Source: an uncultured Candidatus Saccharibacteria bacterium (GTDB lineage Bacteria > Patescibacteriota > Saccharimonadia > Saccharimonadales > Saccharimonadaceae). Taken from it: 64,000 bases of DNA. Made by a program: the position numbers and the translations under genes. The stretch lies in assembly GCA_943914775.1 (NCBI GenBank), contig CALUDH010000006.1, forward strand, positions 5,291 through 69,290, read 5' to 3'. The notes beneath the pieces were generated by a model. That model was given only the letters and a program-made list of their open reading frames with translations, searched no databases and was not told the origin of the DNA. Position 1 is the first letter of the stretch, and each line of letters opens with the position of its first letter. Shown here in pieces: positions 13,031-14,547 of the stretch.

Positions 13031-14547
13031 ATGAATAGATGTTGGAAAACAAAAAGGCTAAAATTTGGATTGGCCATCAAGGCGTTAGCTGTGACAATAG
13101 GTGTGCTAGCAGCGTTTTCTGGTCCGATGTTTTACCCGCCAAAAGCTGCAGCCGACGCCATCAATGACACAGATTTTGTGTTTACCGTGGACACGCGCAA
13201 ATCTGGGTCGCCAGATACTCAGTTCGTCATTCCGATAAGAGGAGGCGGATATAATTATACTATCGATTGTAATAATGATGGTACGGTCGAAGCAACCGCT
13301 CAGACCGGATCTTATACTTGTATTTACGCTACACCTGGTGTGTATACGATTCGTATCGGAGGTGTGTTTCCAGAGTTTTATCTCAATAACGGTGGCGATA
13401 AACTGAAGATGATTTCTATTGATCAGTGGGGGAAGAATAAATGGAGATCGTTGGTGGCTTCATTTTACGGTGCTGCAAATATGGATGTAAAGGCGATTGA
13501 CACTCCCGATTTGTCGCAGACTGACTCGATATACTCTGTCTTTAGAGGCAATACTTCTCTCAAGGGTGAGAATGCTAACTGGAATTGGAACACCTCGACC
13601 ATTACTAATATGGGTAGTGCGTTTAGCGATACTGAAAATTTCAATCAAAACATCGGATCGTGGGATGTCTCTAACGTTGTTTTTGCTGGCGGTTTATTTA
13701 ATAACGTAACGCGACAGCATTTAATAATGGCGGCAGCGATTCAATTAAAAACTGGAACACTGGCAAGATGAATGCGATGAATGCAATATTTCAAAATGCA
13801 GTTAAATTTAATCAGCCGATAGGATCGTGGAACGTTTCGAAAGCCGAGCTGATGAGCGAAATGTTTAATGGCGCTCGCGCCTTTAATCAATCTTTGGCAA
13901 ATTGGCGGCTAGATTCGCTCGTTTCGACAACTGGTTTACCAAATAGTCCTTGGTCTGGCGCCCCTAGGATGTTGGATAATAGTGGTTTATCTATGAAAAA
14001 TTATGATGCTACTTTGATATCTTGGAATATTCAATCAACTAACTCGCCGCTTATACTAGGGGCCGCCGGGTTGAAATATTGCACTGCTGATACGGCTAGA
14101 AAAAATCTAATCAAGTCAGTCGCCGACGGCGGGCATGGCTGGACCATCAATGGCGATGCAAAGGAGTGTCCGAAGCATACCGTAGTTTTTGATACCCAGG
14201 GCGGAATGGCAATTGCCAGCCAAGAAGTTGCTTTTACTGATAAAATTACTGCGCCAGCTGTGCCAAACCGGCAGGGTTATACTTTTGCTGGGTGGTATAC
14301 GGATAACACTTTTGCAAGAGCCTGGAACTTTGCTGTCGATACCATGCCAGACAGTAATTTGACTTTATATGCAAAGTGGATCGAGAATCCTAAGTCTGTT
14401 GCAGCAAGCGGTGGTGCTTCGGAAAACAATTCAAGCTCATCGACCAAGCTGGCCGATACTGGTGTGGATGCGGGAATGTTTTTCTCTGCAGCAGTTGCAT
14501 TTATAGCGGTTGGTTCTATCGCGATTAAGCTGATTAAACGAAGCTAG
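13031..14547 (+). pseudogene. DUF285 (BspA-like) repeat, Flg_new-domain, LAXTG-anchored surface protein, frameshifted by a 5-bp tandem duplication
   Basis: The two ORFs 13031..13771 and 13768..14547 together reconstitute one protein. It has a signal peptide, FNQxIGSWDVS DUF285 repeats, a Listeria-Bacteroides repeat (Flg_new) domain (YTFAGWYTD...LTLYAKW) and a LADTG motif followed by a TM helix and a basic tail. The frames switch at TAACGTAACG (13702-13711). Removing one TAACG copy restores the ...LFNN-ATAFNNGGSD... sequence seen in the paralog. Confidence 0.7.

Follow-up and report, generated by a model that had tools for sequence, protein, structure and literature searches.

Two adjoining open reading frames (ORFs) on a contig of an uncultured Candidatus Saccharibacteria bacterium (CALUDH010000006.1) meet just downstream of a perfect tandem repeat of the pentanucleotide TAACG. 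The question raised by this locus is why a gene for a surface protein should be split there. The whole stretch of DNA that was analysed, 64,000 nucleotides (nt) in length, is referred to here as the window. An earlier note on the window had offered three answers: an inactivating slippage, a reversible phase-variation switch of an adhesin-like protein, or an assembly error. The evidence described below makes it probable that the split is a fresh loss-of-function frameshift in the gene, paralog 1 (P1), and that one clone thereby lost, as the later of two steps, the remaining member of a tandem pair of BspA-like surface proteins, P1 and paralog 2 (P2). Protein searches and a scan of GTDB species representatives placed the organism in an oral Candidatus Saccharibacteria (TM7, Nanosynbacter-like) species complex. 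The elements of P1 on which the argument depends are the following.

13031..14547, forward strand: P1, a BspA-like surface-protein gene and fresh pseudogene, recognised from its repaired ORF, Pfam and NCBIfam matches and an identical public protein.
13702..13711, forward strand: perfect tandem duplication TAACG-TAACG (TAACGTAACG), a derived, frame-disrupting gain of 5 nt at codon 224/225 of P1.
13031..13771, forward strand: N-terminal fragment ORF of 246 amino acids (aa) in frame 0, ending at the TGA at 13769-13771.
13768..14547, forward strand: C-terminal fragment ORF of 259 aa in frame +2, starting at an internal ATG and without a signal peptide.

The sequence at 13702-13711 reads TAACGTAACG, the tandem TAACG that the earlier note had described. 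It comprises exactly 2.0 copies, with the period-5 match breaking at 13701 and 13712. A statistical excess of perfect 5+5 tandem repeats in the window was considered and rejected, as 46 were observed against 53 ± 8.6 in shuffled sequences, and the weight of the TAACG duplication is carried solely by the frame break and by the comparison with orthologs. The insertion of 5 nt at codon 225 brings a TGA into frame 60 nt downstream. When one TAACG was removed in silico, an uninterrupted ORF of 503 aa was obtained that reads ..GLFNNATAFNNGGSDSIKNW.. at this position, and the identical 503-aa protein is encoded on 10-12 public contigs. Homologous coding in the frame of the 259-aa fragment starts at 13707, upstream of the ATG of that fragment. 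The ORF structure and matches to hidden Markov models (HMMs) thus bear out the claims that 13031..13771 and 13768..14547 are two halves of one DUF285/Flg_new/LAxTG protein and that deletion of a single TAACG, as found verbatim in public assemblies, restores its frame.

The ancestral state of the site was read from relatives. Thirty-nine related loci are syntenic with the window, at approximately 89-96% DNA identity. At the site, the sister-species orthologs (approximately 34 genomes) all read ...TTTAATAACGCGACAGC... or, synonymously, ...AATAATGCG...; each has one unit, TAACG or TAATG, and none has an insertion. Nine strains that are 97.8-99.8% identical to the window also carry one copy each. 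No insertion at the site was detected in 14 further JGI/ENA metagenome contigs by a scan tolerating 0-10 extra bases, and an exact-string count recovered the one-copy string in 46 fetched loci, including those 14 contigs. A repeat tract at the site was found in none of the relatives read, and alleles with at least three copies were found in none of the collections. Because every relative examined has a single unit, one copy is ancestral. Comparison with orthologs in sister genomes had been named as a check in the earlier note, and it gave one copy throughout, in sister species and close strains alike.

The lesion is also young. Outside the 5 bp, the DNA of P1 is identical to the intact alleles of nine strains whose DNA elsewhere diverges by 0.2-2% from that of the window, which indicates a fresh lesion without secondary decay. 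The multiple lesions or elevated substitutions of an old, decayed pseudogene were not found, since P1 has one lesion and P2, as described below, one nonsense codon. Likewise, the state that the earlier note would have taken for plain decay, with two copies in all related strains together with additional downstream lesions, was not seen.

An error in the consensus would leave the gene intact, and two features of the data lend themselves to this explanation. The supporting metagenome contigs are of low coverage (2.6-5.7x, by their names), and frameshifts confined to a single metagenome-assembled genome (MAG) also occur in housekeeping neighbours of this data set (yfiH, metG and tatD in L019, L087 and L051), so that MAG lesions are not trustworthy singly. 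The window, however, shares the same 5-bp insertion with five other ENA assemblies (L041, L042, L043, L044 and L059) produced with SPAdes and MEGAHIT, each of which shows 0-1 mismatch to the window; L041 spans 20.7 kb with 0 mismatches and L042 spans 11.1 kb with 1 mismatch. The accessions with two copies are ERZ27139865, ERZ27283794/ERZ26882220, ERZ27283800 and ERZ26881890. By exact-string count the two-copy allele is confined to this clone, elsewhere in which the one-copy allele was correctly assembled. In addition, we know of no systematic short-read or assembler error that takes the form of a non-homopolymer 5-bp tandem duplication. As the duplication was recovered in five other assemblies from two assemblers, it is not an assembly artefact; the third answer of the earlier note is effectively excluded, and we regard a sequencing or assembly origin as very improbable.

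The frameshift in P1 has a counterpart in the second member of the pair.

15701..17188, forward strand: P2, a second BspA-like surface-protein gene of 495 codons, nonsense-inactivated, 57% identical to P1.
16208..16210, forward strand: TAG stop in P2, produced by G-to-A at 16209 from the TGG (Trp) in the DUF285 repeat motif ..DLSWMF..

The ORFs 15701..16210 (169 aa) and 16211..17188 (325 aa) lie in the same frame and are split by this TAG, forming two pieces of one pseudogene. The earlier note had matched the restored P1 sequence to a paralog at 16211. Repaired P1 does align with the downstream paralog from end to end, at 57% identity, but the ORF at 16211 is only the C-terminal piece of the TAG-broken gene at 15701-17188, the nonsense codon of which had been overlooked. 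TGG occupies the position of the TAG in 23 of 23 alignable sister-species loci and in the nine closest strains (L049-L058). The TAG was found in every contig of the window clone (L041-L043, L045-L048 and L052). A recoded stop or an alternative genetic code was rejected as an explanation for it, the other genes being ordinary table-11 ORFs and the relatives having TGG.

The order of the two lesions is given by one contig, ERZ27134589 (L045/L052, 13.9 kb), which shows 0 mismatches to the window except for the 5-bp indel and encodes an intact 503-aa P1. Both copy states exist within one clone. Because this one-copy contig already has the TAG, the P2 nonsense codon came first and the P1 duplication second. 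Look-ups with the UvrA and DEAD helicase proteins of the window, both of which are common to many strains, returned no ERZ27134589 contig. With P2 also lost, the locus looks less like a single gene under a switch than like two paralogs lost in succession. In the first step, a G-to-A change turned the P2 Trp codon TGG into TAG; in the second, a 5-bp tandem duplication of TAACG to TAACGTAACG, presumably spontaneous and de novo, shifted the P1 frame at codon 225. No other split gene appears in the ORF map of the 64 kb, and the only two broken genes in the window are the only two members of the P1/P2 pair. That both hits fell in this one pair suggests that the pair is dispensable, or counter-selected, in the niche of the clone.

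The presence of both states in one clone, with 0 single-nucleotide polymorphisms over 13.9 kb, would also be expected if slipped-strand mispairing switched the site between an ON state with one TAACG and an OFF state with two, making expression of a surface adhesin heritable yet reversible in the epibiont. Phase variation of this kind would further fit a surface-exposed, adhesin-like product, which is a classic target of contingency loci, the lack of secondary decay in P1, and the way in which contigs of three low-coverage assemblies break off close to the site. The simple-sequence-repeat contingency loci of Neisseria (opa, CTCTT) and Haemophilus (tetranucleotides) share with P1 a short repeat within the ORF of a surface protein, here with a 5-nt unit, a copy number that shifts the frame, and the occurrence of both states in one clone. 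They differ from it in having long, conserved tracts with copy numbers that vary across strains, whereas the single copy is ancestral here and two copies occur in one clone. The opa tracts of Neisseria have approximately 7-28 units, and Haemophilus loci carry tetranucleotide tracts; two copies of a 5-mer fall far short of the tracts that known contingency loci carry. The relatives have no tract, many have TAATG and are unable to form this repeat, and copy numbers other than one and two were absent from all collections. Moreover, P2 was inactivated in the same clone by a nonsense substitution, without a switch, and sister strains have lesions of other kinds at other sites. Thus neither a conserved multi-unit tract nor a range of copy-number values was found, and the one hallmark of a contingency locus that is present, ON and OFF states in a single clonal lineage, is equally expected from a single recent mutation. 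The reversible switch proposed in the earlier note is unsupported as a dedicated mechanism, and phase variation of P1 is therefore unlikely, although both states occur within one clone. A change from one to two copies that acts as an ON/OFF toggle of the last functional BspA-like surface protein of the clone, after loss of its paralog, is similarly considered unlikely.

Loss of function by an ordinary mutation, the preferred reading, would place the origin of the duplication in an error of replication or repair rather than in a programmed switch. Flanking microhomology is absent at the duplicated TAACG unit, so that classical slippage from a pre-existing repeat is inapplicable. The duplication lies within a near-tandem repeat of approximately 18 nt (ATTTAATAACGCGACAGC / ATTTAATAATGGCGGCAGC) at 13694-13733, which encodes FNNATA-FNNGGS of the leucine-rich repeat (LRR), and this local repetitiveness might favour misalignment. 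Once formed, the two-copy state provides 5 nt of homology for the precise loss of one copy, and in principle the mutation is reversible. Similar short tandem indels that inactivate a gene, segregate in a clonal population and are reversible in principle are known from the lacI CTGG hotspot and from glpK homopolymer indels of M. tuberculosis; these start from a pre-existing repeat or homopolymer, whereas the duplication in P1 arose de novo from unique sequence without microhomology.

The same lack of flanking microhomology, together with the exact 2.0 copies, would suit a footprint of a staggered cut, in which 5-nt overhangs left by transposon excision (with a 5-bp target-site duplication) or by a nuclease were filled in and rejoined. 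A second, independent case was seen in the P2 gene of L027, where an in-frame 6-bp tandem duplication of TATACG at approximately gene position 325 likewise lacks flanking microhomology, and where the junction makes ACGT, as the TAACG junction does. With two cases only, the shared ACGT may be coincidence. No mobile element was found at or near the site in more than 60 related loci, and bacterial cut-and-paste excision rarely leaves footprints; such an origin of the duplication is accordingly judged highly improbable.

What is lost with the frame can be read from the domains of the repaired protein. Repaired P1 matched the Pfam family DUF285 (PF03382) with 120 bits (E=6e-35), and P2 with 121 bits, against a cutoff of 25. 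It also matched Flg_new (PF09479) at residues 381-447 with 74.3 bits (E=8.5e-21; cutoff 27). In NCBIfam, P1 matched the PARCEL/DUF285 model and List_Bact_rpt (TIGR02543; 50.3 bits against a cutoff of 20.95). Family HMMs therefore place P1 both among the DUF285/BspA-like LRR surface proteins and among the proteins with the Listeria-Bacteroides repeat, and a homolog is named in NCBI as 'BspA family leucine-rich repeat surface protein [TM7 phylum sp. oral taxon 353]'. A DUF285 match well above the gathering score is shared with the BspA-like/DUF285 'PARCEL' LRR proteins, which include BspA of Tannerella forsythia and the DUF285 lipoproteins of Mycoplasma, and the Flg_new/List_Bact_rpt match is shared with internalins that have the Listeria-Bacteroides repeat. 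In comparison with BspA-like proteins, P1 is short (503 aa), has an LAxTG rather than an LPxTG anchor, and belongs to a Saccharibacteria-specific tandem pair. The candidate anchors of the two proteins are located as follows.

14449..14463, forward strand: LADTG sorting motif of P1, read from the translation, followed by a hydrophobic stretch and the basic tail KLIKRS.
17102..17116, forward strand: LAETG sorting motif of P2, read from the translation.

The C-terminus of P1 reads ..KLADTG-VDAGMFFSAAVAFIAVGSIAI-KLIKRS and that of P2 reads ..RLAETG-SNTVLFVLAASIFVASGIVLF-KK. At the N-termini, a basic region, a hydrophobic region and the sequence AAADA were recognised by eye in both. Judged from these translations, P1 and P2 carry the features predicted for sortase (LPXTG-type) substrates, namely a motif, a hydrophobic segment and a basic tail. 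The LPXTG-anchor HMM TIGR01167 gave no match at E<=0.01 in the NCBIfam scan; the motif here is LAxTG, a kind of variant that short anchor models often overlook. No sortase was found among the Pfam annotations of the neighbouring genes in the window.

No more than two products would be expected of frameshifted P1: an N-terminal stub of 246 aa that is secreted, and a C-terminal piece that stays in the cytoplasm. The 246-aa fragment comprises the signal peptide and approximately 224 native residues followed by 22 out-of-frame residues. Because the stub is without Flg_new and the cell-wall anchor, and the C-terminal piece without a signal peptide, the anchored surface protein would be lost. At 13768-13771 the sequence ATGA overlaps the TGA of the upstream fragment with the ATG of the downstream one, and this overlap could permit termination-reinitiation (translational coupling) to produce the cytoplasmic C-terminal fragment.

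A partly functional P1 would be made if a -1 ribosomal or transcriptional slip on TTA AAA ACT (13745-13753) restored the frame at the cost of approximately 15 substituted residues. The slippery A AAA A run (13747-13751) does have the required frame; it follows the duplication and precedes the TGA at 13769, inside the 60-nt overlap of the frames. The orthologs, however, are all in one frame, and a frameshift signal has hence not been under selection; the conserved two-frame architecture of programmed frameshifting was not found, 51 of the orthologs surveyed being single-frame and intact. No stimulatory structure was seen, though none was looked for, and unstimulated slippage typically amounts to 1% or less. 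We consider rescue by recoding to be extremely improbable.

Other strains of the complex have also altered this pair. In the nine closest strains (L049-L058, for example L055 at approximately 3010), which come from several studies, codon 3 of P2 (window position 15704) has GCGC in place of GC, a duplication that throws the conserved GTG/ATG start out of frame and constitutes an independent disabling of P2; the gene calls in these strains fall back to a TTG 19 codons downstream and are without the basic n-region of the signal peptide. Among species representatives, P1 has frameshifts of -1, +1 and -1 (L031, L033 and L037, respectively), and P2 has a 4-bp deletion (L014), a nonsense codon (L028) and the in-frame 6-bp tandem duplication of L027 described above. 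In a further seven genomes (L007, L012, L023-L026 and L032) a deletion between the paralogs has created one chimeric P1-P2 gene, with loss of the gene that lies between them. The same partial P2 match in L085 is probably a further P1-P2 fusion. The fusions fall into two breakpoint classes, at approximately 14562/16708 and 14398/16934 (region ~14400-16930). As the lesions differ in type and position across genomes, they fit random mutation and not a fixed switch. The locus in this respect resembles recent surface or adhesin pseudogenes of host-restricted bacteria, with a single fresh lesion, a paralog hit independently and different lesions in other strains.

The window clone itself shows signs of possible exchange at this locus. 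Nearly all of its differences from the nearest strains (L055 and L058) lie within 15453-16209, a block of approximately 750 bp that spans the 5' end of the gene between the paralogs, the intergenic region and the 5' part of P2. In an otherwise identical background, this distribution suggests a recombination tract.

Several points weigh against a stepwise loss of the pair, or limit how far it can be carried. Slippage is an assumed mechanism: of the inactivating slippage in the earlier note, the inactivation stands, given one copy in all relatives and a P1 otherwise identical to theirs, but the microhomology is absent. Both states in one clone are also what a reversible switch predicts. Some of the ENA assemblies probably represent the same reads assembled twice, as they have identical contig ends (18388; 15891-17535), and the number of independent read sets behind the two-copy allele is nearer to 3-4 plus the window than to 5. 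Close to the site, within approximately 105 nt, three low-coverage contigs of the clone break off: L059 begins at 13681 and L046 at 13815, and L044 stops at 13796. A paralog repeat was rejected as the cause of these ends, the longest exact match shared by P1 and P2 being 14 nt; mixed alleles may have produced a bubble in the assembly graph there, or coverage may have been too low. Finally, a tblastn survey, used in place of an earlier crude DNA-based lesion survey that was dominated by end effects, found P1 frameshifts in 3 of approximately 55 genomes, compared with 2 for yfiH, 2 for hyd, 1 for metG and 1 for tatD, and hence no cross-species excess of lesions in P1 over neighbouring control genes in sister-species MAGs. 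Because the P1 lesion rate matches that of the control genes, selection for loss is not demonstrated beyond the clone. In this the locus differs from cases of within-host adaptive loss of function, the frequency of P1 lesions being no higher than that of neighbouring housekeeping genes.

The remaining features of the locus are the gene between the paralogs and two promoter-like sites.

14608..15642, reverse strand: conserved 344-aa gene between the paralogs, intact here; function unassigned (Abhydrolase_6, E=0.009, below cutoff).
12994..13022, forward strand: promoter-like TTGCTA-17-TATAAT, ending 8 nt before the P1 ATG; consensus match only.
15664..15692, forward strand: promoter-like TTGCTA-17-TATACT, ending 8 nt before the P2 GTG and spaced like the P1 site; likewise only a match to the consensus.

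The total of promoter-consensus matches in the region is no higher than in shuffled sequences. The spacing leaves no room for a Shine-Dalgarno sequence at P1 or P2, and on this basis the mRNAs may be leaderless or very short-leadered. Elsewhere in the window, the gene content between the thioredoxin and uracil-DNA-glycosylase genes (~42233-43073) differs among related strains, making this a small variable hotspot: an 83-aa, 277-aa or 313-aa ORF is found there, or a 430-aa CN_hydrolase/LNT-like gene with a 277- or 302-aa ORF. In the KsgA/RsmA homolog at 10778-11602, which overlaps the next gene by 17 nt, most sister species align over residues 1-256 of 274 only, and the C-terminal tail differs.

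For annotation, 13031-14547 and 15701-17188 are two pseudogenes and not four genes. Saccharibacteria are obligate epibionts with few pseudogenes and genomes of approximately 0.7 Mb, and none of the surface adhesins that they use at close range has, to our knowledge, been identified. Searching the literature for Saccharibacteria together with BspA, DUF285, sortase or phase variation returned nothing on this gene family and no paper tying Saccharibacteria to phase variation of their own genes. If the toggle were real, it would be the first hint that an epibiont of the Patescibacteria or candidate phyla radiation (CPR) phase-varies a surface adhesin by slipped-strand mispairing, and it would single out the pair as governing attachment between host and bacterium or visibility to the immune system. 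Under the stepwise loss that we favour, a tandem BspA-like, sortase-type pair was lost one gene at a time in a single natural clone, of which the intermediate has been sampled. Because other strains have also disabled, fused or remodelled the pair, it may reasonably be put forward as a variable determinant that acts in host interaction or is exposed to immunity, and the locus lends itself to concrete tests of how CPR bacteria evolve within a host. The mutation as such is ordinary; its value is as a useful lead for the surface biology of Saccharibacteria.

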